A stretch of DNA of 64,000 nt from Candidatus Woesearchaeota archaeon (GCA_964411565.1 CAYPLB010000001.1:106839-170838); one strand, 5' to 3'. Counted from the stretch's first letter, positions 39,138 through 63,749 are shown. The notes: generated by a model from the sequence alone, not told the origin. Numbers and translations: made by a program.

Positions 39138-39210
39138 AAATCTCTAAAAATTGTGATCTATTTAAAATTTTTATGATTCTAAAGTTTTTTAAATAAATCT
39201 TTTTATCTTT

Positions 39211-42136: not shown

Positions 42137-42184
42137 TTAGACTATTTTCTTAAAGATTATTTATAAATTTTTGGGATCTATAGT

Positions 42185-42487: not shown

Positions 42488-42594
42488 AATAATGTTTTTT
42501 TTGAGGTTTTTATAAACCTTTTGGATTTTTTTTTATAAATATAATTGAAGAATAATAAAATTTATATAGATCTAATTAAGGAATTTAGAAGGTT

Positions 42595-43896: not shown

Positions 43897-43897
43897 A

Positions 43898-44275: not shown

Positions 44276-44314
44276 ATCATAAATCTTAAAAAAGGATTAT
44301 ATTATTTCTGGATT

Positions 44315-46598: not shown

Positions 46599-46666
46599 TA
46601 AATTTGGTTAAAAAAACTGGGTTTATAAGGATTTTGTAATAAAAGTAAAGCTTTTTAAGTTGATAT

Positions 46667-46990
46667 TTGTTTAATTTTTTGATGGTAGAAGAAGTTCAAG
46701 GAAGTTTTGATAAGTATAAGGATTGTGAGTTAGATGGTAAAGGATATTTTTTGATAAAGATTTATTCTGATGAAGATAAAATTGGGATTAGGTTTTGTGA
46801 AATGGAAACAAATAAACCTGTTATTGATATTTTTGGAAAAATTCCTCAAGAGTTATATACTGAAGCTATTAAAAGAGATTTAATATCTAGTTTGGAACAT
46901 GCAGCTTATTTAGGTAAAGAATTAATGAAAGCTTATGTTTGTTTGAAATTAAAAAGAGAATATATCCAAGATGAGGATAATTTTCTTTAG
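46667..46990 (+). CDS. small hypothetical protein (107 aa)
   Basis: No motif found. Confidence 0.4.
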   Translation: MFNFLMVEEVQGSFDKYKDCELDGKGYFLIKIYSDEDKIGIRFCEMETNKPVIDIFGKIPQELYTEAIKRDLISSLEHAAYLGKELMKAYVCLKLKREYIQDEDNFL

Positions 46991-47025
46991 AAAGTTTTAT
47001 AAGTTTCTTTTATATGATTTAGTTT

Positions 47026-47979
47026 ATGCAAGAAATAAAGAGGTATTTAAGGTTAGCTTTCTCAGATGAAAGATATGAAGTAGGCTTGTTAAAAAGAGAA
47101 GTAAATGTTTTGAAAAAACTACAAGCATCAGTAGAGTCTGGTGGAGTAAGAGATGTTAAAGGATCTATTTTACAATTACAATCCTTTTTTATTGCATTAT
47201 CAAGGACTAATGAAAAATTTTTGAATCATTTATTAGTATTAGAAGAATCGTTTCCAAAAGATGAAAGAATTTCTCAAGTAGAGAATGAAGTTAAAGCTAA
47301 GTTTTTAAGAATTTCTGAGTTGTTGAGTCCTAGTTCTGAGATTATGAGTTTTGTTGTTGATGGAAGAAGAGACGATGTAAGTTCTTTAGTTCCTTTATTA
47401 AGAGAATTAAGGAATTCTATATTAGATCTTTTAGCTACTATGAAAGAAGCTGATGAAGATTTTAAGGATATCAGGAAAAATTATAGGAAGTTGTACAAAA
47501 AAATTATTACTTCTCCTCAAGAAAAAATTGTTGATCTTTTAGCTGGAAAAGGAAAATATAAAGATGTTGATTTGTTGAAGAGAAATGAAATATGGAAGAG
47601 ATGGAAAGGTATGACTAGAGTTAGAGTTTTGAAAGGTAAAAAGAAAAAACCTTTGAAATTATCTGGTTTAGAACTTGCAGGATTTGATTTTAGAGAATTT
47701 AAGTTTGAAAATGTAGATTTTTCAAAATCTACTTTTACTAAACATGGAGTTATATTTGGAAGACTTGGTTGCGGAACTTCTGTAGGAGTCCCTTTGAATG
47801 CTGAATTTATTTTAAGAGTTAATATGAGTAATGCAACTTTTTGTGCTAAACGTGATGGACAAAAATTAGGAGCTTCTGCTAAAGGCCTGAAAGGATTAAA
47901 CTTTGATCAAGTAAATTTTGAAGGAATGGATAATAGAAGTCTAAGATTAATAAGATCAGGAAGAACAAGTATTGATTAA
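47026..47979 (+). CDS. helical N-domain protein with C-terminal pentapeptide-repeat-like region
   Basis: 317 aa. The C-terminal region (LSGLELAGFDFREFKFENVDFSKSTFTKHGVIFGRLG...NMSNATFCAKRDGQKLGASAKGLKGLNFDQVNFEGMD) has 5-residue periodicity typical of pentapeptide repeats. Confidence 0.45.
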   Translation: MQEIKRYLRLAFSDERYEVGLLKREVNVLKKLQASVESGGVRDVKGSILQLQSFFIALSRTNEKFLNHLLVLEESFPKDERISQVENEVKAKFLRISELLSPSSEIMSFVVDGRRDDVSSLVPLLRELRNSILDLLATMKEADEDFKDIRKNYRKLYKKIITSPQEKIVDLLAGKGKYKDVDLLKRNEIWKRWKGMTRVRVLKGKKKKPLKLSGLELAGFDFREFKFENVDFSKSTFTKHGVIFGRLGCGTSVGVPLNAEFILRVNMSNATFCAKRDGQKLGASAKGLKGLNFDQVNFEGMDNRSLRLIRSGRTSID

Positions 47980-48044
47980 TTATCTTTTTTAATTATTTTT
48001 TATTGTAATTTTCTTTAATAAAGTTTTTAAAGAGTTTATATTAT

Positions 48045-48767
48045 TTGTTTGCTATGAAATTTGTTTTAGCTTTACCAACATACAATGAAAAAGAAAATTT
48101 GAAGATTTTACTTCCTAAGCTTTTTGAAATTATAAAGAATATTGAAAATTGGGAAGGAGAGATTGTTGTTGTTGATGATAGTAGTCCAGATGGTACTTCT
48201 GAGTTTGTTGAAGATATGATGAAGAAATATTCTAATTTACATTTAGTAAAAAGGAAAGCTAAGTCTGGTTTAGGTAGCGCATATATTGCAGGGTTTAAGT
48301 ATGGGATTAATGTTTTAGGAGCAGATAATGTTTTTAGTATGGATTCAGATCAAAGTCATGATCCAAATTTAATTCCTAAATTTTTAGAGTATGCTAGTAC
48401 TAATGATATTGTTATTGGAAGTAGATATATCAAAGGTGGAGATTTTAAGAATTGGCCTTGGATTAGAAAAGCAATTAGTAGAGGTGCTAATATTTATGGA
48501 CAATTGATTTTAGGTTTGAAAGTAAATGATATCTCTTCAGGATATAGATGTTATAATACTTTGTTGTGGAAGAAAATAGGGTTTGATAACGTGAAAACAA
48601 ATGGTTATTGTACTCTTGAAGAAATTCTATATTTGGCTAAGAAAAAAAATGCTAGAGTTAGAGAAATACCTTTAGTTTTTGTGGATAGGACTATTGGAGA
48701 AACAAAGCTAACATATAAAGAAATGATTAAGTTTTTTACTACAATTATTAAGTTGAGATTCTCTTAG
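48045..48767 (+). CDS. GT2 dolichyl-phosphate-sugar synthase-like glycosyltransferase (DPM1-like)
   Basis: 240 aa. LALPTYNEKENL, VVDDSSPDGTSE and SMDSDQSHDP (DxD) support the call. Confidence 0.85.
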   Translation: MFAMKFVLALPTYNEKENLKILLPKLFEIIKNIENWEGEIVVVDDSSPDGTSEFVEDMMKKYSNLHLVKRKAKSGLGSAYIAGFKYGINVLGADNVFSMDSDQSHDPNLIPKFLEYASTNDIVIGSRYIKGGDFKNWPWIRKAISRGANIYGQLILGLKVNDISSGYRCYNTLLWKKIGFDNVKTNGYCTLEEILYLAKKKNARVREIPLVFVDRTIGETKLTYKEMIKFFTTIIKLRFS

Positions 48768-50085
48768 AAATACATAGTTCTTCATAACATTTTTCTAGAA
48801 TAAATTCTTCTGGAACTGGATCATCTTTGTGAGAGATCCATAAATTTGCATGTTTTACTCTATCATCTTGTGCAATTAATAAGTTTCCTTGTATCTCTAA
48901 AATTTTGTCATAATAATATGTAGGAGATGCTTGTAATGATAAAGTTGAAAAATACTCCGAATCTTCTGTAAAAGCGTAATATTCTTCTGGTAAGAAATAA
49001 GATCCTTCCCAAAGATATACCGCAACTGTTGGATGTAAGATTGCTCCGTCTATATTGTAGTCATTTTGTATTTGTTCTAAATCTGATGGATAAGATGCTT
49101 CAACTGGTGAGTAAAATGGAACTATAAAGATTAAAGTTAAGATTATAGAAATAATTATGTGTAAGTAAACCATTTTTTTGGTTAATACTTTTGAAAGTAA
49201 ATAGAAAATAATTGCAGATGGAATTAAAATGTATTTTATGTATGATCCAGTTACTAAGAAAAATGCAGTAACTGTAATTATGAAAAAAAGTTCATTTTTG
49301 TATTTTTTGAAGTTTGTTTTGTAAAGCATGAAAAGTAAAGGAGAAATTAAGAATATGAAATAAACCGTTTCAAAAATTAATAAACCTGCAATCATTCCTG
49401 CATCTCCAGTTGCACCTAAACCTAAAGCATTTTTTAAGTTTGCTCCAAAAAATCTAATCTCTGAATAAAAAGGTAGACCTGTTAGTTTATAGTCGAGAAT
49501 AATTCTTGGTAAGTAAAATAATCCAACTAGTATTGAAAATGGAATTAGTTTTTTTATTGTCAGTTTTCTCATGAAAGCAATTAAGAACATTAAAGTTACA
49601 AAGAACATTGGAGTATAAATTGCCATGGAAAGGCCTAAAGAAATTGCTGTGATCCAAAGATGTTTGTTTTTGTTATTATTTTGCCATTTTTTTATTTGAA
49701 AATAAGATAATGTTGTTAAGAAAGCTGCAGGCATGACTGGTGTTAGTTCAGGAGCAGCTATCCAAACCATTGGTGAAAATAAAAAAAGTAAATATGCTTT
49801 CTTGTTTGTATATTTTCTGATTAAAATTGCAATCGGAATTAGCCATAGTACATTTAGAATTTGAATTGTTTTTATTGAAGGAATAAATTCTACAAAGAAT
49901 GCTAAAATGTATGTGTATAACATTGAGTGAGTACTATGTGCTTTGATTATTTGAAAACCAGCAAAATCTTTTATTAAATTAAAATATTCTATAGAATCAT
50001 GAAAAATTATTTGTTTTGATGTGTATACTAAGATTAATAAGAGTATTGTGAAAATTCCTAAAAGTAGCCAGTCTTTTTTGTTCAT
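48748..50085 (-). CDS. polytopic membrane protein (possible GT-C-type glycosyltransferase)
   Basis: 445 aa with about 11 TM helices and a C-terminal soluble domain. It has no WWDYG motif. It is convergent with and overlaps the GT2 gene by 20 nt. Confidence 0.5.
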   Translation of the reverse strand: MNKKDWLLLGIFTILLLILVYTSKQIIFHDSIEYFNLIKDFAGFQIIKAHSTHSMLYTYILAFFVEFIPSIKTIQILNVLWLIPIAILIRKYTNKKAYLLFLFSPMVWIAAPELTPVMPAAFLTTLSYFQIKKWQNNNKNKHLWITAISLGLSMAIYTPMFFVTLMFLIAFMRKLTIKKLIPFSILVGLFYLPRIILDYKLTGLPFYSEIRFFGANLKNALGLGATGDAGMIAGLLIFETVYFIFLISPLLFMLYKTNFKKYKNELFFIITVTAFFLVTGSYIKYILIPSAIIFYLLSKVLTKKMVYLHIIISIILTLIFIVPFYSPVEASYPSDLEQIQNDYNIDGAILHPTVAVYLWEGSYFLPEEYYAFTEDSEYFSTLSLQASPTYYYDKILEIQGNLLIAQDDRVKHANLWISHKDDPVPEEFILEKCYEELCISKRIST

Positions 50086-50188
50086 TAGATGTTTTTTCTT
50101 TAAACCCTTTTTATAGTTTATTATGTTAAAATTAATAATTGTTTTTTCTTTCGGAAAATTTATAAAGAGGGGTTTTATTTTTTATTTT

Positions 50189-50527
50189 ATGGTATGGGAA
50201 GAAATTTTAAATCAATATGGAAAAAGAGATAAAAGAAATATAGGAGTTGCTTATAATTTTGATGGATTTAAAATACTAGGTATTTATCATCAACCTTTAA
50301 AAGAAGATCCTTCAGCTAGTTTAGAGCTTTTAAGTCTTTTAGAAGAAGATCAGAGTAGAGGAACTCTAGCTTCATATAATCTTGATGGAAGTGGAGAATC
50401 TGTTAGATTAGAAAATTTTAGAGGAATTGAAAGTCAACTTAGAGAACTTAGAAGGCATCCTGATTATGGTAGATTATTTGGATCTGTAGTTGATGAAATT
50501 TTTGAAGAGTTAAATATTAAACAATAA
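50189..50527 (+). CDS. small hypothetical protein
   Basis: The ORF track starts at 50123. A TATA (tttataaa, 50160-50167) 22-29 nt upstream of the internal ATG at 50189 favours the shorter 112-aa product. Confidence 0.4.
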   Translation: MVWEEILNQYGKRDKRNIGVAYNFDGFKILGIYHQPLKEDPSASLELLSLLEEDQSRGTLASYNLDGSGESVRLENFRGIESQLRELRRHPDYGRLFGSVVDEIFEELNIKQ

Positions 50528-50593
50528 TAACGGTTTCTCCTTCAGAAAACTTATAAATGGAAATTTTGTTAGGTTGAGAATTGGAGGGTTAAA

Positions 50594-51640
50594 ATGAAAA
50601 AAGCTTTAATTACAGGAATTACAGGACAAGATGGTTCTTATTTGGCAGAATTTTTATTAGAAAAAGGGTATGAGGTTCATGGTATTGTTAGGAGAGCTGC
50701 TTTGGAAGATTCTAAAGCTAGAATGAGTCGAATACATCACCTAAAAGGAAGGATAGTTTTGCATCCAGGAGATATTGCAAGTTATGCTTCTGTGTTAGAT
50801 ATTATTGATAAAATAAAACCTGATGAATGCTATCATTTAGCAGCGCAAAGTTTTGTGCATGAATCTTTTCATGATCCATTTTCAACATTTAAAACTAATG
50901 TAGATGGTACAATGCATATTTTACATGCAATAAAAGAAAGAGCTCAAAATTGTAGATTATATTTTGCAGCAACTTCTGAAATGTTTGGAGATGTTGTTGA
51001 AGTTCCTCAAAAAGAAACAACTAGGTTTCACCCAAGGTCACCATATGGTGTAAGTAAAGTTACTGGTTTTGATATAATTAGAAATTATAGAGAAAGTTAT
51101 GATTTATTTGGATGCTCTGGAATTTTGTTTAATCATGAGTCTCCAAGAAGAGGATTTGAGTTTGTAACAAGAAAAATTACACAGAATGTTGCAAAAATGA
51201 AAACTGGAAAAGAAAATGTTTTAGTCCTAGGAAATTTAGAAGCTAGAAGAGATTGGGGCTATGCTGGAGATTATGTTAAAGCAATGTGGTTAATGTTGCA
51301 ACAAGAAAAACCAGAGGATTATGTTGTAGGAACAGGAGTGAATCATTCTGTAAAAGACTTTGTTGATGCAGCATTTTTAGCAGCTGGATTAAGTTATGAA
51401 TTAGTTGATTTGCATATGATGAGTCCAGAAATGGCAGATATGAAAATTGAAGAACTAAGAAAGGATAAAAGTAGGTTATTTGTTGTACAACATCCAAAAT
51501 TCTTTAGACCTGCAGAAGTACATAACTTATTAGGAGATCCGACAAAGGCTAAAATGAACCTAGGTTGGCAACCAGAAGTTTCTTTTCAAGAGTTAGTTAA
51601 GATGATGGTTGAAGAAGATATCAGACAAATGAGTGGTTAA
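50594..51640 (+). CDS. gmd: GDP-mannose 4,6-dehydratase
   Basis: 348 aa. KKALITGITGQDGSYLAEFLLEKGYEVHGI, the YGVSK catalytic dyad and LFNHESPRRG are canonical GMD motifs. SD ggaggg precedes the ATG. Confidence 0.9.
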   Translation: MKKALITGITGQDGSYLAEFLLEKGYEVHGIVRRAALEDSKARMSRIHHLKGRIVLHPGDIASYASVLDIIDKIKPDECYHLAAQSFVHESFHDPFSTFKTNVDGTMHILHAIKERAQNCRLYFAATSEMFGDVVEVPQKETTRFHPRSPYGVSKVTGFDIIRNYRESYDLFGCSGILFNHESPRRGFEFVTRKITQNVAKMKTGKENVLVLGNLEARRDWGYAGDYVKAMWLMLQQEKPEDYVVGTGVNHSVKDFVDAAFLAAGLSYELVDLHMMSPEMADMKIEELRKDKSRLFVVQHPKFFRPAEVHNLLGDPTKAKMNLGWQPEVSFQELVKMMVEEDIRQMSG

Positions 51641-51950
51641 AATGAGGAAATTACTCTCTTCTTATGGTTTAACTAATAAAAGGGAAGGTGTCGATGAAAT
51701 TTACAGAGGGGAGTATGTTAATGGGTATGATTTTGAGTTTGGTGAAAAAGAAAGATTAGGTTTGGTAGTAAAGAGATTTGTAGGTTATGGTACTTATGGT
51801 GCTGTAGGTTATATTTGTAATGATTTGGATGATCTAAGAACTATTGTTGAAAAAGAAGAAAAACTGGATTATCAATATTTTGAGTTTAGAATTTATAGAG
51901 TAGGTGAGAATATTGACTTTTGGTATTCTGCATCTTCAGAAAGTTTATAA
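51633..51950 (+). CDS. small hypothetical protein (105 aa)
   Basis: It overlaps the gmd stop by 8 nt and is likely co-transcribed. No motif found. Confidence 0.4.
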   Translation: MVKMRKLLSSYGLTNKREGVDEIYRGEYVNGYDFEFGEKERLGLVVKRFVGYGTYGAVGYICNDLDDLRTIVEKEEKLDYQYFEFRIYRVGENIDFWYSASSESL

Positions 51951-51973
51951 ATTTCTTTATTTTTTTAATATTT

Positions 51974-52462
51974 ATGGCAACTTGTGAAATGTGTGGATAT
52001 ATGGGTGAGTTGAAAAGAGCAATAGTAGAAGGAAGTATGATAGGTGTCTGTCAGAAATGTTTAAAGTATGGAGATGCCATCGAAATTAAAAGTCCACCAA
52101 AAGAAGTTGTTGAAAAAAGATTAGCTTTCAAGGCTAGAAGAAGTTTTGCTGATAGACATAGGATTGAAGATGAAAATATAGTTTCTGGTTATGGTAATAA
52201 AATTAGAAAAGCAAGAGAAAAAATGGGTAAGACACAAGAAGATATTGCAAAAGCTATAGCAGAAAAAGTTTCAGTTGTACAAAAAGTAGAATCTGGTGGT
52301 TTAGAGCCTCCTTTGAAATTAGCTAGGAAGTTTGAACAATTTTTTAAGATTAATTTAGTAAAGAAAAGTGAAAAGATTGGTGAAGAGACAATAAAAGAGT
52401 TTAATATTAAAAGTACTGACTTAACAATAGGTGATATGATTAAGTTCAAAAAGAAAAGTTAA
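51974..52462 (+). CDS. archaeal multiprotein bridging factor 1 (MBF1): zinc ribbon + XRE-type HTH
   Basis: The ORF track starts at 51920. A TATA (tttataaa, 51946-51953) 21-28 nt upstream of ATG 51974 indicates MATCEMCGY... as the start. The protein has C-x2-C...C-x2-C followed by the HTH GKTQEDIAKAIAEKVSVVQKVESG. Confidence 0.8.
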   Translation: MATCEMCGYMGELKRAIVEGSMIGVCQKCLKYGDAIEIKSPPKEVVEKRLAFKARRSFADRHRIEDENIVSGYGNKIRKAREKMGKTQEDIAKAIAEKVSVVQKVESGGLEPPLKLARKFEQFFKINLVKKSEKIGEETIKEFNIKSTDLTIGDMIKFKKKS

Positions 52463-52489
52463 ATAAATGAATGTTCTTATTTAATATGT

Positions 52490-53107
52490 ATGAATAAAAA
52501 AGAGTTGGAAATTATTTTGTCTAAATTGAAAGGATTTCATAAACCAAAAGTTAAGTTAGAGCAATATTTAACTGATTCTACAATTGCAGCAGATGCTGTT
52601 TGGAATGCTTATCATAATAAACATTTAACTAAAAAAACAATAGCTGATTTGGGTTGTGGGCCAGGAATCTTTGGCTTTGGAGCTTTAGCATTAGGTGCAA
52701 AGAAAGTATATTTTGTTGATATGGATAAAGAAGCTTTGATAGTGGCTAAAGAAAATAAAAAAATTATGGAAAAATTATTAGGAAAAAAATTAAATTGTGA
52801 TTTTAGAAATGTTAATGTTAAAGATTTTTCTGAGAAAGTTAATATTGTAATACAAAATCCTCCCTTTGGGGTAAAACAAACACATCATGATAAATTGTTT
52901 TTAGTTAAAGCAATGGAATTATGTGGAATTATTTATTCTTTCCATAAGTTATCTACAAAAGATTTTGTGAATAAATTTGTTAGAGATAATGGATTTAGAA
53001 TTAAACATTTCTATACATATAAATTTCCTATCAAACAGACTTATTGGTTTCATATTTCTAGAGTTAAAGACATAGATGTTGGTTGTTGGTGTATAACTAA
53101 AAGATAA
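52490..53107 (+). CDS. small N6-adenine-type (NPPF) SAM methyltransferase, METTL5/HemK-like
   Basis: 205 aa. IADLGCGPGIFG (motif I) and IVIQNPPFG (motif IV of amino-methyltransferases) support the call. Confidence 0.7.
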   Translation: MNKKELEIILSKLKGFHKPKVKLEQYLTDSTIAADAVWNAYHNKHLTKKTIADLGCGPGIFGFGALALGAKKVYFVDMDKEALIVAKENKKIMEKLLGKKLNCDFRNVNVKDFSEKVNIVIQNPPFGVKQTHHDKLFLVKAMELCGIIYSFHKLSTKDFVNKFVRDNGFRIKHFYTYKFPIKQTYWFHISRVKDIDVGCWCITKR

Positions 53108-53142
53108 AAACTTTAATAAAAGCCAGAGACTAAAGAAATATT

Positions 53143-56100
53143 ATGCCTTTTAATGTAATTGTAGGAAGAAATGAATCTGATAAAAAGAAGTTTGGTGATA
53201 AAGGGTCTATTCTATTAGGTAGAACTTATGTAAAAATGGGTCAAACTGTTTCTTTGTCTAATTATATTTATATGGATGTTATTAGGTCTCATATTGTTTT
53301 TGTCGTCGGTAAGAGAGGAGGGGGAAAGTGTCTTACAGGAGATTCTCTAGTATGTCTTGATGATGGTTCTTGTTTACCTATTAAAGAATTAGAAGATAAT
53401 AATCAAAAAATATTAAGTTTGAACAAAGGTTTGAAAATTAATCCTAGAGAAAAAGATGATTTTTTTAAGAGAAAAGTTGATAAAATTGTAAATTTAAAAC
53501 TTCGTAGTGGAAGGAATATTAAACTTACACCAGAACATCCATTATTAACAATCAAAGGTTGGAAAGCTGTAAAAGATTTAAATTTTGGAAGTAGAATTGC
53601 TGTACCTAGAAAGATTGAAGTTTTTGGTAATGAGGAAATGTCTGATTTTAAGATTAAATTATTGGCTTATTTGATTGCTGAAGGTCATACAAGGAATAGT
53701 TGGGTTTTGTTTAGTAATAAGGATAAAATTATTTTTGAGGATTTTGAAGATTCTGTTAAAAAGTTTGATGATAATTTACAAGTTTTAGAACATAGTAAAC
53801 CTGGTTGTTATAGAGTAAGTAATAAAAATAATAGATATGGTGGGAAAAAGAATTCAATAAAGGAATGGTTAATTGGTTATGAGCTTTATGGTAAATATGC
53901 TACTGAAAAATGGATACCTCAAGATATTTTTAGATTACCTAGAAAATCATTAGCTTTGTTTCTAAATAGATTATTTAGTTGTGATGGGAGTGTTTATTAT
54001 AGTAATTCAACAAAATCATGGGAAATATGTTATTCATCATCTTCCGAGAGATTAATTAGAGATGTTCAACATTTGTTGTTGAGATTTGGAGTTTTGTCTA
54101 AATTAAGAGAAAAAAATATAAAATATAATGGAGAATATGTCAAATCTTATGAGTTGGTTGTAAATAGGGAAAATTGTATAAAATATATTGAAGAAATTGG
54201 TTTTTTAGGAAATAAAAAAGAAATTTCTAAGAAATGTTATAATGAAATTATTAATGTTGTAAAAAATCCTAATGTTGATACAATCCCTAAGGAGATATGG
54301 GATATTTATAGACCTGAAAATTGGGCAGCTCTTGGGAGGGCAGTTGGATATAAACATCCTAAAGCTATGAGAGAAAGAATTAGATATTCTCCTTCAAGGC
54401 AAACAATGTTACAAATAGGTTTAGTAGAAGAGAATCTTAGTTTGATGGCTATTGCTAGATCAGATATATTTTGGGATGAAATAGTTTCAATGGAAGTTTT
54501 GGATGGAGAATTTGAAGTATTTGATATTTCTATTCCTAAAAGTCATAACTTTGTTGCAAATGATGTTATTGTTCATAATTCTTACAGTGCGTCTGTAATT
54601 GCAGAAGGAATGGTAGATTTGCCTGATGAAGTTTCAAAAAATCTTTCAGTAATTATGATTGATACTATGGGAGTTTTTTGGTCAATGAAATATCCTAATG
54701 AAAAGGATTTAGATTTATTGGAACAATGGGATTTAAAACCTAAAGGTTTGAAAAAAATTACTGTATTTGTACCAATTGGAAAGTTTGAAGATGCAAAAAA
54801 AAATGGAGTTCCTGTTGATGAACCATTTTCTCTGAAAGCAAGTGAATTAACTGGAGAAGATTGGAGGTTAGCTTTTGAATTGGATTATTCACATCCTGTG
54901 GCAATTTTAATGGAAAAAATTTTAGGGGATATGTTGGAAGAAAAAATTTATGAATATGATATTGATGATATTATTGAAAGGATTGAAAAAGAAAGTACTT
55001 TTCCACAATTAGTTCGAAATGAAGGAATTAATAGAATGAAAGCTTCAAAGAGATGGGGTTTGTTTTCTAAGGAAGGTACTAAAATTAATACTTTGATTAG
55101 AGGTGGACAAGTTAGTGTTTTAGATACCTCAGCTTATCTTACTGGAGAAGGAGGACAAGCTGTTAGATCATTAGTAGTAGGTTTAGTTGCAAGAAGAGTT
55201 TTTGTTGAAAGGATGATCTCTAGACAGTTAGAAGAAGTTGAAGCAATTAAAACAGGTTATTCTTATTTTAAAATGGAAGAAGAAGCTGATAATAAAGAAA
55301 AGAAACCTTTAGTTTGGTTTATTATCGATGAATGTGTGCCTAAGGGAACAAAAGTTCATACTCATAATGGACATACTTCTATTGAAGAAGTAATTGAAAG
55401 ATTTAATTCTGGAAAAGAAGTTAAAGTTATGTCTTATGATGCATTAAGGAATGAATATGGTTTTAGAAAAGTAACAAAAGTTTATGAAAATGGTGTGAAG
55501 GACTTGATAGAGTTAAGAACAGAAACTGGAAAAATTTTGAAATGTACTCCTGATCATAAATTATTAGGAGTTTTAGGTTTTAGAAAAGCAAATGAAGTTA
55601 CAGAGATTGGGGCACCTTTAAATTATCATCATGACAAAAGAGAAAAGTTAATTATTGCAAGATTATTTGGAAATATTGTTGGGGATGGTTATTTGTCATC
55701 TAATGGGACAATTGTAGGATTTTCTGGGAAAGGTTGTAAAGAAGATTTGTTGAGAATTAAAGATGATTTGGGAGATTTGAATTTTAGTTCTGGGGAAATT
55801 TATAGTAGAAAAACAGAGTCTCAAATTGTATCGGAAGATGGAAAAATTGTAAAAGTAAAAGGTATTAGTCAGGAACTAAGATCTAGTACAAAATGTTTTA
55901 ATTATTTTAGTAAATTAGAGGCACCAATTGGAGAAAAAATTCTAAGTGATTTTAGAATACCTAAATGGTTGAAAGAAGCAAGTTTTGAAGAAAAGACTGA
56001 GTTTTTGGCAGGATTAATGGGGGCTGATGGAAATTTACCTAGTGTAAATAAAAATTGCGGAAGTGATCCAAATCCAATAAGATTGTCTTTTAATTTTTTG

Positions 56101-57075
56101 AAAGAAAATAAAGAAAAAGCATTAGCTTATGCAGAAGATTTGAAAAAATTGTTTGAAGATGTTGAAGTTCAAATAAGTTCTATATTAATTAGAAAAGGTA
56201 ATATAAGAAAAGATGGAAAACTAACTTCAAAATGTGTTTTAACATTAGCAAAAAATCATGATAATATTATTTGGTTTTTGGATAAGGTTGGATATAGGTA
56301 TTGTGAAAATAAAGAAAAAGCTGGAAGAAGATGGTTACTTTATTTGAAATCAAAGAAATTTGAAGGTTATATGCAAAATTTATTGAAGAAAAAAGCAATA
56401 CAAATACATGCTGAAAAAGGTTTAGGTAAAATAAAAATAGCTAAAATTTTGGGAGTTAAACCTTATCAAGTTAGGGATTGGATATATTTTTCACATTTTG
56501 GGACAAGAGCTCCAAATTCTTTTCCTAATTTTAATGAATGGATTAAAGAAAGAGAAATAGATAATGTAGTATTTGAGAATGTTATACTAAAAAAGTTTTC
56601 TCCAGCACAAGAAGTTTTTGATTTGACTGTAGAAGGGACTCATAACTTTGTAGCAAATGATTTTATTATACATAATTGTCATAATTTTTTACCATTTGAA
56701 GGAAAGACAGCTGCAACTGATGCTTTAGTTACAATTTTGAGAGAAGGTAGACAACCTGGTTTGTCTTTGTTATTAATTACACAACAACCAGGAAAAGTTC
56801 ATACTGATGTATTAACACAATCTGATATTGTTCTTTCTCATAGATTAACTGCAAAGAGAGATGTTAGTGCTTTGAACTCTATGATGCAGACTTATTTAGG
56901 AGAAACTTTAACTGGATATTTGAATATGTTGCCATCTGAGAAAGGTGCAGCAATTATTTTAGATGATAATTCTGAAAGGTTATATCCTATGAAAGTTAGG
57001 CCTAAATTTTCTTGGCATGGTGGAGAAGCACCAACAGCATTAAAGTATAAGAGATCAATGAACTTGGGGATTTAA
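53143..57075 (+). CDS. HerA/FtsK-like (DUF87-type) P-loop ATPase interrupted by two inteins
   Basis: 1310 aa. The exteins splice to ...VVGKRGGGK|SYSASVIAEG (Walker A), ...VWFIIDE|CHNFLPF (DEAH-type Walker B) and LLLITQQPGKVHTDVLTQSDIVLSHRL (HerA-like TQxP region). The total extein length is about 445 aa. Confidence 0.85.
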   Translation: MPFNVIVGRNESDKKKFGDKGSILLGRTYVKMGQTVSLSNYIYMDVIRSHIVFVVGKRGGGKCLTGDSLVCLDDGSCLPIKELEDNNQKILSLNKGLKINPREKDDFFKRKVDKIVNLKLRSGRNIKLTPEHPLLTIKGWKAVKDLNFGSRIAVPRKIEVFGNEEMSDFKIKLLAYLIAEGHTRNSWVLFSNKDKIIFEDFEDSVKKFDDNLQVLEHSKPGCYRVSNKNNRYGGKKNSIKEWLIGYELYGKYATEKWIPQDIFRLPRKSLALFLNRLFSCDGSVYYSNSTKSWEICYSSSSERLIRDVQHLLLRFGVLSKLREKNIKYNGEYVKSYELVVNRENCIKYIEEIGFLGNKKEISKKCYNEIINVVKNPNVDTIPKEIWDIYRPENWAALGRAVGYKHPKAMRERIRYSPSRQTMLQIGLVEENLSLMAIARSDIFWDEIVSMEVLDGEFEVFDISIPKSHNFVANDVIVHNSYSASVIAEGMVDLPDEVSKNLSVIMIDTMGVFWSMKYPNEKDLDLLEQWDLKPKGLKKITVFVPIGKFEDAKKNGVPVDEPFSLKASELTGEDWRLAFELDYSHPVAILMEKILGDMLEEKIYEYDIDDIIERIEKESTFPQLVRNEGINRMKASKRWGLFSKEGTKINTLIRGGQVSVLDTSAYLTGEGGQAVRSLVVGLVARRVFVERMISRQLEEVEAIKTGYSYFKMEEEADNKEKKPLVWFIIDECVPKGTKVHTHNGHTSIEEVIERFNSGKEVKVMSYDALRNEYGFRKVTKVYENGVKDLIELRTETGKILKCTPDHKLLGVLGFRKANEVTEIGAPLNYHHDKREKLIIARLFGNIVGDGYLSSNGTIVGFSGKGCKEDLLRIKDDLGDLNFSSGEIYSRKTESQIVSEDGKIVKVKGISQELRSSTKCFNYFSKLEAPIGEKILSDFRIPKWLKEASFEEKTEFLAGLMGADGNLPSVNKNCGSDPNPIRLSFNFLKENKEKALAYAEDLKKLFEDVEVQISSILIRKGNIRKDGKLTSKCVLTLAKNHDNIIWFLDKVGYRYCENKEKAGRRWLLYLKSKKFEGYMQNLLKKKAIQIHAEKGLGKIKIAKILGVKPYQVRDWIYFSHFGTRAPNSFPNFNEWIKEREIDNVVFENVILKKFSPAQEVFDLTVEGTHNFVANDFIIHNCHNFLPFEGKTAATDALVTILREGRQPGLSLLLITQQPGKVHTDVLTQSDIVLSHRLTAKRDVSALNSMMQTYLGETLTGYLNMLPSEKGAAIILDDNSERLYPMKVRPKFSWHGGEAPTALKYKRSMNLGI
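53329..54579 (+). mobile_element. intein 1 (417 aa) with LAGLIDADG homing-endonuclease domain, inserted in the P-loop
   Basis: It starts with Cys1 (CLTGDSLVCLDDG) and ends ...VIVHN followed by the +1 residue Ser. The LAGLIDADG-type blocks are LAYLIAEGH and FLNRLFSCDGSV. Confidence 0.85.
55333..56676 (+). mobile_element. intein 2 (448 aa) with LAGLIDADG homing-endonuclease domain, inserted after the Walker B IIDE
   Basis: It starts CVPKGTKVHTHNGH and ends ...FIIHN followed by the +1 residue Cys. The LAGLIDADG-type blocks are LFGNIVGDGY and EFLAGLMGADGN. Confidence 0.85.
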
Positions 57076-57627
57076 ATGTACGAGAGAAGAGATAAGTTTT
57101 ATGAAAAAGCTAAGAAAGCAGGATATAGAGCTAGGTCTTCATACAAATTAATAGAAATTCAAAAAAAATATAATCTAATTAAAAAAAATGATGATGTGTT
57201 AGATATTGGTTGTGCTCCAGGTTCTTGGTTACAAGTTGTGAAAAAATATACCAAAGGAAAGATTGTTGGAGTTGATATTGTTCCAATGAAAAAAGTTTCT
57301 GGAGTTAAATTTATTAAAGAAGATGTTAGAGAAATTAAATTTAGTGAGAAATTTGATGTTGTTATTTCTGATATTGCTCCAAAAACAACAGGAAGTAGAG
57401 AAGAAGATCAATTTTTGTCTTATGAACTATCAAGAGAAAGTTTTTTGGTCGCTAAAAAGAATTTGAAGAAGAAAGGAAATTTTTTAGTGAAAACATTTCA
57501 ATCTCAAGATACAGAAGAATTAGTAAAAGAAATGAAACCTTTTTTTGGTTTTTTAAAGAGATATGTGCCAAAGAGTACAAGACAAAGTTCTAAGGAATTG
57601 TATATTATAGGGTTAGGATTTAAATAA
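57076..57627 (+). CDS. rlmE: rRNA (uridine-2'-O)-methyltransferase RlmE/FtsJ
   Basis: 183 aa. GYRARSSYKLIEIQKKY and DIGCAPGSW are FtsJ hallmarks. Its ATG directly follows the stop of the ATPase gene. Confidence 0.85.
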   Translation: MYERRDKFYEKAKKAGYRARSSYKLIEIQKKYNLIKKNDDVLDIGCAPGSWLQVVKKYTKGKIVGVDIVPMKKVSGVKFIKEDVREIKFSEKFDVVISDIAPKTTGSREEDQFLSYELSRESFLVAKKNLKKKGNFLVKTFQSQDTEELVKEMKPFFGFLKRYVPKSTRQSSKELYIIGLGFK

Positions 57628-57629
57628 AT

Positions 57630-57637
57630 TTTATAAA
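57630..57637 (+). promoter_or_regulatory. TATA box for the 57660 gene
   Basis: tttataaa sits 23-30 nt upstream of ATG 57660. Confidence 0.35.
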
Positions 57638-57659
57638 TAGATAATTTTTCTTTGTGTAG

Positions 57660-58019
57660 ATGAAAGTTGAAAATTTAAATTTAGGACAAGAAGTAAGGAT
57701 AAAACATATTGAAGAGAATGAATATCAAAAAGCAAGATATGTAGGTTTATTTGGACAACAAGACCAATTGGCTACTTTTATTTGGAATAGTGAAAGGAAA
57801 GATTTTATTGATGGAGTAAGAGCCTATATGGATCAAAATTTTAAAATTCATAAAGAAAATGATGCTGTTTTTGTTGAATATGGAAAAACCAGTAATTGGG
57901 AAGGAGTTAGTAGAACTTTAGGTACAGTTTATTATTTCTCAGATTTTTTACAAGGGGAAATTAGGAATTTGGAAAAATTCGCAGAGAGAGAGTATAATTC
58001 ATTATTAGCTTTTTTGTAA
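57660..58019 (+). CDS. small hypothetical protein (119 aa)
   Basis: No motif found. Confidence 0.4.
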   Translation: MKVENLNLGQEVRIKHIEENEYQKARYVGLFGQQDQLATFIWNSERKDFIDGVRAYMDQNFKIHKENDAVFVEYGKTSNWEGVSRTLGTVYYFSDFLQGEIRNLEKFAEREYNSLLAFL

Positions 58020-58150
58020 ATCTTTTGATTTTTCTGAAAATCTTTCAGTTTTTTCTTGTAAAGTTTTTTTAAATTGTTTTTGTTATTATAGTTTGAGAGT
58101 TTTTTTGCTGTTTTTGTTGATATAGCGAGAGCTTTCTTAGGAGGTGTAAG

Positions 58151-58684
58151 ATGAGTTTAGAATCTGAGATTATTAAGGAAATTGAAAATAAAGGATGGGA
58201 TATAAGTTATAATGGTGAAACTGTTGAAAATATTTATGGACAAGAATTTGAAGTTAATTTTGAGAAATCTGATGGTTTTTTTAGTTTAGGTGGCTATATT
58301 GATCCATTAGGAAAGAAGATTGTTATAAAAGATCCTGATCCACAATATGTTGCTTTGACACAAGCAGATTCAAGAGGAGATTTGATGGCGCAAACTTTAG
58401 CACATGAATTAGGACATGCAGATTCATATTGGGTTTCATATGGATTGAGTGCTTTGATTATAACATTAGGTGTGCAACAAGCAGTTAGTAATAAATCAGT
58501 AAAACCATTAGCTTATGCAGGAGTTACATTTGTAGGTTGTAGATTGCTAGTTGATGAAGTTATTGCTGAAGCTTTTGCTTGTGCTTTTCATGATGTGCCA
58601 TTTTTTAGAAGCGCATATTTAGGTCTACCAAGTATAGCAGGGTCTGCATCAGAAGTTTGGAATGGAATCCAGGGACTTTTTTAG
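58151..58684 (+). CDS. HEXXH zinc-metallopeptidase-like protein
   Basis: 177 aa with LAHELGHADSYW. Strong SD ggaggtg lies 7 nt upstream. A hydrophobic stretch follows the HEXXH. Confidence 0.45.
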   Translation: MSLESEIIKEIENKGWDISYNGETVENIYGQEFEVNFEKSDGFFSLGGYIDPLGKKIVIKDPDPQYVALTQADSRGDLMAQTLAHELGHADSYWVSYGLSALIITLGVQQAVSNKSVKPLAYAGVTFVGCRLLVDEVIAEAFACAFHDVPFFRSAYLGLPSIAGSASEVWNGIQGLF

Positions 58685-59007
58685 TTTCTTTTAGGAAGAA
58701 TTAAATTTAAGTTGAAGGTTTTTATTAGACTTTCAACAAATTGTTCACCTTTTTGAGTAATATAATACTCAACCCTTAAAGGTTGTTCAATTAAAATCTT
58801 TCTCCCAATTAAACCAATTTCTTCTAAATGTTTTAATTTGTTTGATAGAACCTTTGGAGTTATTTTATTTACTCTTTTATTAAGTTGGTAGAAGTTTATA
58901 GATCCATATGCATAAATTAATAATAAAAGTAATACAATCCATTTTCCAAAGATAGTATCTAGATGGATTACCTTCTTAATTATTTGTGATATATTGGCCT
59001 CTAACAT
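58681..59007 (-). CDS. winged-helix transcriptional regulator (HxlR/MarR-like) with N-terminal hydrophobic segment
   Basis: 108 aa. KITPKVLSNKLKHLEEIGLIGRKILIEQPLRVEYYITQKGEQFVE resembles the HxlR-type wing-helix. Confidence 0.5.
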   Translation of the reverse strand: MLEANISQIIKKVIHLDTIFGKWIVLLLLLIYAYGSINFYQLNKRVNKITPKVLSNKLKHLEEIGLIGRKILIEQPLRVEYYITQKGEQFVESLIKTFNLNLILPKRN

Positions 59008-59079
59008 AGAGTATTTTATGGGTTTTTTATTATATAAAAGTATGTTATCACTAAGAAGTTTAAGGGTTTAAAAAGGAAA

Positions 59080-59997
59080 TTATAGGATTTTTATGTCTAA
59101 GCAAACTCTAAGCTTTCCTGGACCATATTGACCACATTTTGCAACTTCTAAAACTTTAAACCTTTTTATGTGTTGTTTTATTGTCTCAATAGATCTTTTT
59201 GGAATATCTTTTTCACTTAGAAAATCGTAAAAGTGGATTGTTCCATTCTTTTTTAGTAATTTTTTTGCATTGTCTAAAAAGTCTTCAGCAGACTTTGGTA
59301 AAGGCATTAATATTCTGTCAAATTTTTCTTTGTGAGAGAAAGTTTTTGCATCTTCATTGTATAATTCTATATTAGGATATTTTTTGCAATTCTCAATAGC
59401 ATATTTGTGACCAATAGGATTTTTTTCTACAGCAACAATTAGTTTAGGGTTTGAATGTTTTGCAATTACTAAAGGATATGGAGCTACTCCAGAAAATAAT
59501 ACTAATACTTTTTCATTATCTTTGACTTGTTTTGCTACTCTTAATCTTTCAGTGCTTAATCTTGGAGAAAAGTAAACTTTTTCAGGGTTTAATTTCATTT
59601 GTATTCCATTTTCTCTGTGAATTGTTTCTTTTCTTTTCTCGCCAGCTATATGTTCTAGTTTTAATGTTCTGAACTCTCCAGAATAATTTCCTTTTCTTCT
59701 TAATACAACTTTAATATTTGATCTTTTTAATATTTCTTTAGCATCAGATTTTTTTGCTTCTTGAGATAAAATAACTATGTCACCAACTAAGTCATAAGAA
59801 CTAGATTCAATATTTGATCTTTCAATTTTTTCACATTTTTTTTGTACAATATTTAAACCTTTGATTTCTTTTGTAAGAGGGAAATATATGAACTGTTTGG
59901 TAACTAAAGCTTTGTAATCTCTTGAAAGAACCTTAGCTTTGATTAGTTTTTGTTTTAATTTTTCTGCATCTTTCTTCAGCGTTTTAGCGCATTTCAT
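59080..59997 (-). CDS. tRNA methyltransferase of the Trm5/Taw2 (Met-10+) family
   Basis: 305 aa. VLVLFSGVAPYPLVIAK (motif I of Trm5/Taw2) is present and the C-terminal class I MTase fold is intact. Confidence 0.7.
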   Translation of the reverse strand: MKCAKTLKKDAEKLKQKLIKAKVLSRDYKALVTKQFIYFPLTKEIKGLNIVQKKCEKIERSNIESSSYDLVGDIVILSQEAKKSDAKEILKRSNIKVVLRRKGNYSGEFRTLKLEHIAGEKRKETIHRENGIQMKLNPEKVYFSPRLSTERLRVAKQVKDNEKVLVLFSGVAPYPLVIAKHSNPKLIVAVEKNPIGHKYAIENCKKYPNIELYNEDAKTFSHKEKFDRILMPLPKSAEDFLDNAKKLLKKNGTIHFYDFLSEKDIPKRSIETIKQHIKRFKVLEVAKCGQYGPGKLRVCLDIKIL

Positions 59998-60079
59998 AGT
60001 ATTATATAAGAAAATGAGAGTTTAAAAGCCTTTTTGGATTATGAGGTAGAAAACTGAAATCTTTAAATATTAGGTCTTT

Positions 60080-60583
60080 TTGAAGTTTTTTATGAATCCA
60101 TTATTATTATTACCATTTGTTAGCATGGCTGAAGCATATGATCCTAAAGATATTAGTGCTATTGTTATTGATGAAGCTTTTAAAGATGGAACTTATGAAG
60201 ATAGTTTAGATTCTAGAGAATATAGGATCGATAAATTTTCTGAACAAAATATGCAATATTTTGGGTGGTTTAAAATTCCTGTATATTTAGATGAAATTGT
60301 TTATACTGATAAAGAGAATAATGGATTGTCTGAAGGAGATAAATTAAGTTATAATTTTAGATTTGTTGTAGGAGGAAGGAATATGTATTTTTCATTTGAA
60401 GACCATTTTCATAGCTCTGAAGGATTGTATGCAACTTGTGTTTATACTGATTTACCAGAAAGTAAATGTGTTACTGTTGCAGATTTTAATCAGTTTGGAG
60501 AAACTTCTTCTTTGATTTATCAGACTACAGAGCTATATAGAGAAAAGGTTGGAAGTCTATTTGAAAAATTATCTTCTCCTTAA
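60080..60583 (+). CDS. secreted hypothetical protein
   Basis: 167 aa with signal peptide MKFFMNPLLLLPFVSMAEA. It is convergent with and overlaps the next gene. Confidence 0.4.
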   Translation: MKFFMNPLLLLPFVSMAEAYDPKDISAIVIDEAFKDGTYEDSLDSREYRIDKFSEQNMQYFGWFKIPVYLDEIVYTDKENNGLSEGDKLSYNFRFVVGGRNMYFSFEDHFHSSEGLYATCVYTDLPESKCVTVADFNQFGETSSLIYQTTELYREKVGSLFEKLSSP

Positions 60584-61687
60584 TGGATATATTACATTTG
60601 CACTTTGTCTAGGTGGCCTTTGTGCTTGGAATGTTTCTAAATCTTCTTCTAACCAAGAACTGGATTCTTCACTCCAATGAGGTGGAGCATTACTTTTACC
60701 ATTAATTTCATTATGGAAATATTCGTTGTTATAGTACATCCAAATGTCTACAGTAGGATAATCATGATATTTGAAATAATAATAAGGGATACTTGAGGAA
60801 TCTACTTCCATGTAACCAGTTTCATCGTAATAGTTTCCAGCAGTTGCTTCAACATCAAACCATCTTCCATCTTCATATACTTGTACCCATGCATGACCAC
60901 CAACAGTCCCATCAAAATTTACAGTTCCAAGGACAACTCGAATATTTTCTGTATCATAACCATCTGCAATTAATACTGAAACTAATGTATTAGCTTGTTC
61001 TTCACAGTCACTTGCAGTTAAACCTAAAGGATTGGTGTCCAAACTTGCTGTAATTGTTAAAAAGTTTTCAGGGAATAACCATTTTTCTTCTTCACCAAAT
61101 AACATAGAATCTGACATCCAAACCCAATCTAAGGATTCAGCATATATTTCTTCTATTCCATCAAGTTCATCAGCTAATTCTTGAACTGCATCAGAGTCTG
61201 GAGTAATGTAAAGTTGGTATGGAGATATTATGCCACCAGGCCAGTCAATTTCTGGATTTTCTTCTTCAAGTAATCTCTGTAATTCCTCTCTGTCAATAAT
61301 GTCTCTTTGTATAACTGTTCTATCTAAATTTAAGTTTTTAATTTTTTCATCTCTTGCTGAATTTAAATCTTGTTTTAAGTCACTAATCATTGTTTTAATA
61401 TTATGGCCTTTAGCAAGTTCTAATACACAAGAATTTGAACTTAAGTATTCATAGTCAGAATCTGTTCCATCTGAGCCAATAATAATAAATTCATCATTTT
61501 CAATAGTAATTTTAACTTCACCTGGTACTAATGATTCCCATTCACAACTTTTGTCAAATTTTATTACAATTGGTTCTGTTGTATTATAAAAAGTTAAATA
61601 TAAAGATGTAGCTAGTGCTAGTAATAATATAATAGTGATTGTAAAAATTATAGTTTTTCTTAAAGCTCTTTTAGTGGCCTTTTTCAT
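60569..61687 (-). CDS. membrane-anchored transglutaminase-like (papain-fold Cys-His-Asp) domain protein
   Basis: 372 aa with an N-terminal TM anchor. The core DCEEQANTLVSVLIADG...GGHAWVQVYEDGRWFDVEAT matches the transglutaminase-like Cys/His/Asp arrangement. Confidence 0.7.
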   Translation of the reverse strand: MKKATKRALRKTIIFTITIILLLALATSLYLTFYNTTEPIVIKFDKSCEWESLVPGEVKITIENDEFIIIGSDGTDSDYEYLSSNSCVLELAKGHNIKTMISDLKQDLNSARDEKIKNLNLDRTVIQRDIIDREELQRLLEEENPEIDWPGGIISPYQLYITPDSDAVQELADELDGIEEIYAESLDWVWMSDSMLFGEEEKWLFPENFLTITASLDTNPLGLTASDCEEQANTLVSVLIADGYDTENIRVVLGTVNFDGTVGGHAWVQVYEDGRWFDVEATAGNYYDETGYMEVDSSSIPYYYFKYHDYPTVDIWMYYNNEYFHNEINGKSNAPPHWSEESSSWLEEDLETFQAQRPPRQSANVIYPLRRR

Positions 61688-61711
61688 TGGTAGAAAATAT
61701 TTATTTTGAAT

Positions 61712-62290
61712 TTATAAAGTTTTAGAAAGATGTTCTGTGCAGTTAAAAAGCTCCATTTGTTTGTTGTTGATTATTGTTAAGGAAGTGTTATCGGTTAAAT
61801 ATTCTCTGTATTCTTCTATAGGTATGTTGAGTAAATGAAGGATTGAACATATTATTGAACCTCCATGCCCAACAATTAAAATGTTTTTATCTGGTAGTTC
61901 TTTGTAAAATTGTGAAATTTTTGGTAGACAATCTAAGTAATTTTCTCCACCTTCAGGTCTAAAGTAACAATAAAGTATATTTTGTTTGTTTAATTCTTTG
62001 TAGAAATGTTTACGTTTCATACCTTCATATTTGCCTTTTGACATCTCTCTTAGTTCCTTTTTTTGATTTAATTTAATATTTGGATGAAATTTTAAGATCT
62101 CTTTAGCAGTTCTTGAAGCTCTTTGTAAATCACTAGAAAAAGCTAAATCAAATTTTAGATCTTTTAGTCTGTTTGCAATTGCTTTTGCTTGTTCTATACC
62201 TTTTTCAGTTAAAGGAGAATCTAGTTGACCTTGTGTGATGTCATTTTTATTAGCTTCAGATTGTCCATGTCTTACCAAGAAAAGTCTCAT
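61712..62290 (-). CDS. histidine phosphatase (phosphoglycerate-mutase family)
   Basis: 192 aa. LVRHGQSEAN is the RHG catalytic motif, with HGG near the C-terminus. Confidence 0.8.
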   Translation of the reverse strand: MRLFLVRHGQSEANKNDITQGQLDSPLTEKGIEQAKAIANRLKDLKFDLAFSSDLQRASRTAKEILKFHPNIKLNQKKELREMSKGKYEGMKRKHFYKELNKQNILYCYFRPEGGENYLDCLPKISQFYKELPDKNILIVGHGGSIICSILHLLNIPIEEYREYLTDNTSLTIINNKQMELFNCTEHLSKTL

Positions 62291-62342
62291 AATATTTTGA
62301 AAAGTAGTAATATTTTTAAAGATTTGTTGCTTTTAGATAAGG

Positions 62343-62669
62343 ATGGTAGATGAAATTGTTACAAAAAATATTGAATTTCTTAGAAAAAATTTAAGTAAAT
62401 TTGTAAGATCTTCAGCAATGACAGGTCAAATGTATAAAGGATATAATATAATGAGCTATACTGTTTTTTATGATGAGAATGGTAGTTTTAAAAATAATAT
62501 TACTGAAGGAAAGAATAGTGTTTCTATGAAAATAGCTTTAAGTGATGTGAGCCCAAAGGCAAAATTATATCTTTTTGATTTCAAAGTTCCATTTTTTCCT
62601 TGGAAAGTAGGAAGAAAAGTTAAGGAAAGTTTGAATTTATATAATCAATTAGATGGTTTTAAACCCTAA
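62343..62669 (+). CDS. small hypothetical protein (108 aa)
   Basis: No motif found. It is convergent with the FEN-1 gene. Confidence 0.35.
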   Translation: MVDEIVTKNIEFLRKNLSKFVRSSAMTGQMYKGYNIMSYTVFYDENGSFKNNITEGKNSVSMKIALSDVSPKAKLYLFDFKVPFFPWKVGRKVKESLNLYNQLDGFKP

Positions 62670-63664: not shown

Positions 63665-63718
63665 GTAGGTTTTCTAGAGTTAAGGGTATAAAAAGTTTTT
63701 GTGTTTAGATTGATAAGT

Positions 63719-63726
63719 TTTATAAA
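63719..63726 (+). promoter_or_regulatory. TATA box for the partial gene at 63750
   Basis: tttataaa sits 24-31 nt upstream of ATG 63750. A mirror TATA (63687-63694) serves FEN-1 on the other strand. Confidence 0.35.
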
Positions 63727-63749
63727 TTCAGTAAGTCATAATATAAATC

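Follow-up and report, generated by a model that had tools for sequence, protein, structure and literature searches.

Two unrelated inteins at the Walker A and Walker B motifs of a HerA-clade ATPase from a DPANN archaeon

A 64,000-nucleotide (nt) stretch of DNA from a Candidatus Woesearchaeota archaeon (GCA_964411565.1, CAYPLB010000001.1:106839-170838), referred to below as the window, contains a gene for an ATPase whose two nucleotide-handling motifs are both interrupted by long in-frame inserts, which raises the question of what these inserts are and how such a protein could ever be active. A preliminary description of the locus had proposed two LAGLIDADG-type inteins placed exactly at the Walker A and Walker B motifs of a HerA/DUF87-type ATPase and had read this arrangement as a sign of intense homing pressure. 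The presence of two inteins at the Walker A and Walker B motifs of one ATPase was confirmed. In the interpretation developed here, to which we assign a probability of about 0.9, two unrelated class-1 inteins have invaded a compact HerA-clade ATPase of a DPANN archaeon of Woesearchaeota/Nanoarchaeia type, where they behave as self-excising, homing passengers; what we infer in it is that the inteins splice, that their endonucleases cut, and what the ATPase does in the cell.

When residues 63-479 and 731-1178 were excised from the translated precursor, a spliced protein of 445 amino acids (aa), encoded by 1338 nt, was obtained. This protein retrieved thousands of matches of 440-450 aa at 100% coverage, the closest of which was P0001, an intein-free protein of 445 aa that aligned without any gap at 92% aa identity. 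The spliced DNA and the intein-free gene (L005:2367-3704), each of 1338 nt, also aligned ungapped, with 87.6% nt identity, and the higher aa than nt identity is as purifying selection would give. The contig L005 is syntenic with the window, the shared genes being an MBF1-like helix-turn-helix (HTH) gene, a methyltransferase gene, the ATPase gene and an FtsJ gene. The insertion points, marked here by a slash, were compared with this empty allele: at Walker A (site a, GK/S) the window reads GKRGGGK/SYSAS where L005 reads GKRGSGK SYSAS, and at Walker B (site b, DE/C) it reads FIIDE/CHNFLP where L005 reads FIIDE AHNFLP. The joined exteins restore a contiguous P-loop ATPase, the lack of which would have refuted the preliminary description. 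The four intein boundaries that it had placed are all codon-exact and in frame, its figure of 865 intein residues among 1310 was recovered on recomputation, and both inteins lie exactly at the catalytic motifs, at K62/S63 for Walker A and at E313/C314 for Walker B. No second open reading frame of at least 60 aa overlaps the gene in any frame. Caution is needed in annotation, as what looks like a "hypothetical protein" of 1310 aa stands for an ATPase of 445 aa.

The inserts were identified by several families of models. The Pfam Intein_splicing model (PF14890) matched the precursor in two stretches (E = 4.9e-45; 153.5 bits for a cut-off of 35.8), with 96 bits for intein 1 and 64 bits for intein 2, and TIGR01445 (intein N-terminal region) and TIGR01443 (C-terminal region) gave two matches each, all above their cut-offs. 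Strong matches were also found to the intein portions of the curated intein-containing DnaB, RFC, IF2, GyrA and RtcB models; against the intein portion of the NCBIfam DnaB model NF005852, intein 1 scored 272 bits, and intein 2 scored 152 bits against that of the RtcB model NF038162, while the NCBIfam RFC and IF2 alignments extended across the P-loop into intein 1. Solved DnaB, RadA, CDC21, RecA and VMA inteins gave sequence matches to both splicing domains, and DnaB, RadA, CDC21 and VMA inteins were the PDB matches of intein 1. As regards the residues that define class-1 inteins, the N-terminal side shows C63 and LTPEH in intein 1 and C731 and CTPDH in intein 2 (block B TxxH), and the C-terminal side ends in VIVHN/S and FIIHN/C, respectively; the block F Asp, the penultimate His, the terminal Asn and the +1 nucleophile are present in both. 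The N-terminal Cys and the C-terminal HN followed by a nucleophile, reported earlier for each intein, are therefore supported by the residues and by the TIGR01445 and TIGR01443 matches alike. Judged by these residues, both inserts are canonical class-1 inteins and are predicted to splice. The two are 19% identical to each other, indicating independent invaders; this value ruled out that intein 2 is a copy of intein 1.

The host was assigned from the spliced protein, on which the Pfam domain DUF87 (PF01935, the HerA central domain) scored 35.5 bits for a cut-off of 23.2. The protein combines a Walker A motif of the form GxxxxGK[ST], a Walker B motif of the form hhhhDE and a DUF87/HerA domain, as expected of a P-loop core. 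Across 60 aligned family members, the Walker A residues G56, K57, G59, G61, K62 and S63 were invariant, as were D312, E313 and H315 of the Walker B DExH, and in the HMMER alignment with the solved HerA 8xau the segment FIIDECH stood opposite the Walker B segment IVYEEAH. The region of the precursor that best matched the HerA models was the C-extein. The AlphaFold model of the spliced protein (predicted local distance difference test, pLDDT, 87.5) has a beta domain at the N-terminus and, besides it, a RecA-like core, and its top 50 Foldseek matches in the PDB were, without exception (50/50), HerA or HerA-like, with E values down to 8e-18, the best being Thermococcus kodakarensis HerA (9x1l/9x1m; E about 1e-17, template modelling score 0.61-0.65). 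With DUF87 above its cut-off and HerA at the top of the structural matches, the HerA/DUF87-type assignment was upheld. The fold suggests that the protein could work as a hexameric nucleic-acid translocase. Its family is broad, with at least 589 species-level genome loci, nearly all labelled Woesearchaeota, Nanoarchaeota or Nanoarchaeia.

The positions of the inteins mean that the Walker A Lys is separated from the Mg-binding Ser by intein 1, and that intein 2 directly follows the catalytic Glu. Intein 2 is followed at +1 by a Cys, where 57 of 60 relatives have Ala, and Cys stands at +1 in every allele seen with a Walker B intein. An intein-free homologue of 445 aa, P0003, which is 76% identical to the extein of the window, also has DECH and not the DEAH of the family; this DECH may be the footprint of a precise loss of the Walker B intein.

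Each intein was also found to contain two LAGLIDADG-type blocks, in agreement with the preliminary description, as indicated by Pfam and motifs for intein 1 and by motifs and fold for intein 2. In intein 1, the LAGLIDADG_3 domain (PF14528) scored 81 bits for a cut-off of 22.5, and the motifs are kept in P0128, P0136, P0137 and P0139-P0146. An alignment of intein 2 and eight relatives of 27-53% identity (alignment A2), six of these being seen at site b, shows an invariant Asp-Gly in motif 2 (9/9 sequences). Motif 1 has its GDG in each of the six site-b copies that extend over it, against SDG in the thioredoxin-hosted P0134, and the catalytic Asp residues are kept in allelic copies at 44-53% identity. 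The AlphaFold model of intein 2 (pLDDT 90.6) matched best the endonuclease-bearing inteins TliVMA, PhoVMA, PI-SceI and PI-PkoII and further the free LAGLIDADG enzymes I-AniI and I-OnuI, as well as WhiA (LAGLIDADG and HTH). Both inteins present the two LAGLIDADG helices, with an acidic residue in each, of an alpha-beta-beta-alpha-beta-beta-alpha pseudo-dimer, and each therefore carries a predicted homing endonuclease with both acidic residues intact. A weak Pfam match, helices in the model and the fold match to WhiA further point to a putative HTH-like segment after the core of intein 2, probably an extra DNA-binding element of its endonuclease. The coordinates of all these elements are collected in Table 1.

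Table 1. Elements of the ATPase precursor gene, with positions counted from the first nucleotide of the window
Feature	Coordinates	Strand	Sequence or basis
Precursor gene, HerA-clade (DUF87) ATPase with two inteins	53143..57075	+	1310 codons and TAA stop; open reading frame scan, domain matches
N-extein, aa 1-62, HAS-barrel-like beta domain	53143..53328	+	AlphaFold strands 5-55; ends in Walker A GKRGGGK (53308..53328)
Intein 1, 417 aa, aa 63-479, between Walker A Lys62 and Ser63	53329..54579	+	CLTGDSLV...DVIVHN, then S
Intein 1, block A	53329..53352	+	CLTGDSLV
Intein 1, block B	53521..53550	+	KLTPEHPLLT
Intein 1, LAGLIDADG core	53656..53991	+	PF14528 LAGLIDADG_3
Intein 1, LAGLIDADG motif 1, acidic residue Glu	53656..53688	+	KLLAYLIAEGH
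Intein 1, LAGLIDADG motif 2, acidic residue Asp	53950..53991	+	LALFLNRLFSCDGS (contains FLNRLFSCDGS)
Intein 1, blocks F/G	54517..54579	+	VFDISIPKSHNFVANDVIVHN
Middle extein, precursor aa 480-730, mature aa 63-313	54580..55332	+	SYSASV to Walker B LVWFIIDE (55309..55332)
Intein 2, 448 aa, aa 731-1178, after Walker B Glu313	55333..56676	+	CVPKGTKV...DFIIHN, then C
Intein 2, block A	starts 55333	+	CVPKGTKV
Intein 2, block B	55537..55569	+	LKCTPDHKLLG
Intein 2, LAGLIDADG core	55651..56037	+	alignment A2, fold matches
Intein 2, LAGLIDADG motif 1	55651..55695	+	IIARLFGNIVGDGYL (contains LFGNIVGDGY)
Intein 2, LAGLIDADG motif 2	55996..56037	+	TEFLAGLMGADGNL (contains FLAGLMGADGN)
Intein 2, HTH-like segment	56419..56487	+	GLGKIKIAKILGVKPYQVRDWIY; weak Pfam HTH_23, E 0.023; model helices 366-385
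Intein 2, blocks F/G	56614..56676	+	VFDLTVEGTHNFVANDFIIHN
C-extein, aa 1179-1310 and stop	56677..57075	+	from Cys+1 (CHNFLP); invariant REGRQPG (56740..56760)

The distribution of the inteins among relatives of the ATPase was then considered. The empty state is represented by P0001 and its contig L005. A full-length intein at site a alone occurs in P0128, L009, L010 and L077, and the family members with a full-length intein at this site comprise P0128, P0137, P0140 and P0141 and the loci L009, L010 and L077. Site b alone is occupied, with the P-loop intact, in L030:5001-7679 (892 aa), and both sites are occupied in P0136 and P0145, the exteins of which are respectively 73% and 45% identical to that of the window. 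As all four occupancy states exist, the two inteins assort independently. Mini-inteins of 144-188 aa without endonuclease were found at site a in P0050-P0052, and a third P-loop site located three residues upstream, GKRG/SGKS, holds a mini-intein of about 164 aa, also without endonuclease, in P0022 (L013:5001-6827). The site-b intein is rare, with eight matches from 5.8 billion clusters, five of which (P0129-P0133) are allelic copies in the host ATPase family with 44-53% identity. Among the eight matches, the intein of P0134, a thioredoxin-like protein (...DFYADW/C...), is the single one that is clearly related to intein 2 without being allelic; it is 29% identical to intein 2 and apparently interrupts the CxxC active site at its first Cys.

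An intein at any position of the gene was seen in 5 of the 80 best species-level genome loci and in 5 of the 120 top protein clusters, fractions that suggest low occupancy but are probably underestimates since split genes rank lower in both lists. The "intense homing pressure" of the preliminary description found no support in these counts. Furthermore, insertion into catalytic motifs is a normal habit of inteins, which cluster in ATPase domains (Novikova et al., PMC4760082), and the location of the two inserts is therefore no sign of unusual pressure.

Some relatives deserve a separate mention. The long paralogues P0139, P0142 and P0146 (1197-1492 aa) are extended at both ends, by a Lys/Glu-rich segment at the N-terminus and by a large segment at the C-terminus; they carry at GK/S an intein 48% identical to intein 1 and their exteins are about 34% identical to that of the window. 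The record of L030 is titled "MAG: bacterium" and yet its ATPase gene and FtsJ neighbour are of DPANN archaeal type, and many family loci are titled "uncultured Methanosarcinales archaeon"; these records are probably mislabelled bins.

The conservation of intein 1 was compared with that of its host. In close relatives, the intein is less conserved than the extein (62% versus 73%), whereas in distant hosts, including the long paralogues of 1200-1500 aa, it is more conserved (48-54% versus 34-49%). Lateral movement of intein 1 between diverged hosts would be the simplest explanation of this pattern. The relatives of intein 1 outside the family that were read, in DnaB-like, RadA-like and other ATPase-like hosts, all lie directly after the Walker A Lys. 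A foreign composition of the inteins was rejected, their GC content (27-28%) and their GC content at third codon positions (GC3) being the same as in the host gene.

On the basis of these data, the following course of events is proposed. The 1310-aa precursor would be translated with both nucleotide-handling motifs broken and should for that reason be inactive. Each intein would then undergo an N-S acyl shift at its Cys1, a trans-esterification to Ser+1 (intein 1) or Cys+1 (intein 2), the cyclisation of its terminal Asn and an acyl shift restoring the peptide bond, so that both excisions would yield the 445-aa ATPase with GKRGGGKS and IIDECH restored. At the DNA level, the endonuclease would cut the empty site of an intein-free allele and the intein would be copied in by recombinational repair, the two inteins acting as independent selfish passengers.

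Several results weigh against this interpretation, some of them concerning the host and others the mobility of the inteins. The NCBIfam HerA equivalogs were not reached (NF040819, 41.9 bits for a cut-off of 970; NF040937, 23.9 for 800), the HerA, anti-phage HerA and CedD models giving weak matches far under their equivalog cut-offs, and no NurA, Mre11 or Rad50 Pfam family was present among the genes called within about 6 kb in L001-L007. Because of these scores and the lack of an adjacent NurA, we call the spliced protein a HerA-clade ATPase and not an orthologue of the HerA-NurA helicase. The Pfam scan of intein 2 detected no LAGLIDADG domain. The identical 1310-aa protein was found on 14 contigs from several projects, that is, without polymorphism within the population, and the DNA of the gene is identical in the four assemblies compared (L001-L004: Logan, JGI and two ENA samples). 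The nearest empty allele comes from another species-level lineage (87.6% nt identity), and in comparison with it no co-conversion tract could be detected beside the junctions, identity being flat at 0.78-0.97 per 60 nt.

The uniform population, the lack of an empty allele found in it, the missing co-conversion signal and an intein composition fully ameliorated to that of the host could all be explained if the inteins were resident relics, which still splice and are inherited vertically as a double allele with endonucleases that no longer home. The poor homing of haloarchaeal MCM double-intein alleles into empty targets (PMC10643990) also points in this direction. Nevertheless, such relics would be expected to decay in the way the mini-inteins at site a illustrate, whereas the acidic LAGLIDADG residues are kept in each intein and in allelic copies at 44-62% identity; the existence of both site-a-only and site-b-only alleles and the higher conservation of intein 1 than of extein in distant hosts argue in the same sense, and we hold this explanation to be unlikely. 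A dead gene, with inteins unable to splice, or an assembly chimera receives practically no credence from us: nothing specific speaks for it apart from the size of the precursor and the two-thirds of the frame taken up by inteins, and it is opposed by a frame open over 3933 nt without a stop, by splicing residues that are all intact, by the purifying-selection pattern of the extein, by the independent assembly of the same DNA from the Logan, JGI and two ENA samples and by the diverged double-intein homologues P0136 and P0145. A pseudogene or an assembly artefact was accordingly rejected on the open frame, the intact residues and the independent assemblies.

The inteins might also have been co-opted as conditional post-translational switches that activate the ATPase in response to redox state, temperature, substrate or single-stranded DNA. 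Since both sites break the ATP site, activity would be strictly dependent on splicing, and Cys1 and Cys+1 of intein 2 could form a disulfide trap; conditional splicing is reported for the P-loop RadA intein (PMC4513877) and has been argued for in general (PMC4760082). However, most family members have no intein, showing that none is needed for the function of the ATPase, and occupancy is patchy and includes decaying mini-inteins, which makes a regulatory role very improbable. Little credence is likewise given to a bolder proposal, according to which the DPANN translocase would be held behind a two-key gate, active only once both inteins have spliced and with Cys1 and Cys+1 of the Walker B intein as a redox lock, and/or the mosaic of alleles with no, one or two inteins would bear witness to DNA that is still being exchanged and recombined between free-living populations of these episymbiotic archaea. 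If the part on the mosaic of alleles were true, DNA exchange could be measured through intein homing. The invasion of the ATPase by two unrelated, self-excising and homing inteins thus remains the interpretation that we retain.

As to the surroundings of the gene, the neighbours of the ATPase are of housekeeping type (FtsJ, Trm5, FEN1, ribosomal proteins and PolB), and these neighbours together with the wide conservation of the family hint that the ATPase may be essential, as the preliminary description had thought probable. Its stop codon abuts the start of an FtsJ/RlmE-like methyltransferase gene (TAAATG, 57073..57078). The ATPase-FtsJ pair recurs in L005, L006 and L030 and in 8 of 72 loci overall, and a Trm5 gene was located at most 5 kb away in 30 of 83 loci, whereas NurA is absent from the vicinity; the search for a functional partner in the gene neighbourhood thus led to no assignment. 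The other open reading frames of at least 500 aa in the window (n = 6) have no intein domain. Two proteins unrelated to the inteins were observed in the window: a 611-aa protein with a eukaryotic-type Ser/Thr protein kinase domain (13657..15489, minus strand) and another of 1028 aa in which Ig-like/Y_Y_Y domains are repeated (3524..6607, plus strand). The GC content is uniformly low over the window (1..64000; 27-34%), and the GC skew, which is strongly positive at roughly 1-20 kb and 36-58 kb and negative at 26-36 kb, probably follows the coding strand.

With regard to the literature, P-loop insertions of inteins are described in DnaB, MCM, RFC and other proteins, Walker B insertion in PolIII gamma, sites around Walker B in MCM, and two inteins in some DnaB proteins (PMC4760082). 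Multi-intein genes are reported to be frequent in Euryarchaeota, and the corresponding table gives no such gene for either of the two DPANN genomes sampled (PMC10643990). The knowledge of inteins in general is left unchanged, since insertion at the P-loop or Walker B and multi-intein genes were already established. A search on MJ0043 and on inteins of HerA/COG0433/DUF87 proteins returned nothing relevant in the searched literature, in which we found no report of the HerA-clade ATPase of DPANN archaea as an intein host family; it can be added to the list of hosts. The family offers a natural series (empty, Walker-A-only, Walker-B-only and double alleles, mini-inteins and a third P-loop site) in which the interplay of neighbouring inteins can be studied, and it could help to follow the movement of genes within archaea that have not been cultivated.

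HerA is known in archaea from the HerA-NurA end-resection helicase and in bacteria from anti-phage HerA acting with partners. The spliced protein resembles HerA in its HAS-barrel-like N-domain, RecA-like core, Walker A, DExH Walker B and REGRxxG segment, but it is shorter (445 aa versus 500-600) and has housekeeping neighbours instead of an adjacent NurA, SIR2 or DUF4297 partner gene. Intein 1 shares its insertion point (GK/S or GK/T) with the P-loop inteins of DnaB (site b), the RFC small subunit (site a), aIF2, RadA/RecA and VMA-b, from which it differs by its host family and by the confinement of its closest copies (48-62%) to the DPANN family and the long paralogues. For intein 2, the nearest named non-allelic relatives are, by NCBIfam, the RtcB and RFC inteins, together with the thioredoxin-hosted intein (29%). 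The cyanobacterial PolIII gamma/tau (DnaX) likewise has an intein immediately after the Walker B of a P-loop ATPase (PMC4760082), in that case an AAA+ clamp loader, which belongs to another ATPase class. A further close parallel is the haloarchaeal MCM, for example that of Haloferax mediterranei, a hexameric DNA motor whose ATPase core likewise houses two independent endonuclease-bearing inteins, MCM-a in Walker A and MCM-d near Walker B (PMC10643990; PMC4760082). The double intein studied by Turgeman-Grott et al. (PMC10643990) combines MCM-d with MCM-a, which directly follows the Walker A Lys as intein 1 does, and there too single and double alleles coexist among relatives. The present host is, however, a HerA-clade (FtsK/HerA-type) ATPase of DPANN archaea and not an AAA+ MCM, and its second intein stands exactly after the Walker B Glu, where it forces a Cys in place of the conserved Ala and turns DEAH into DECH.

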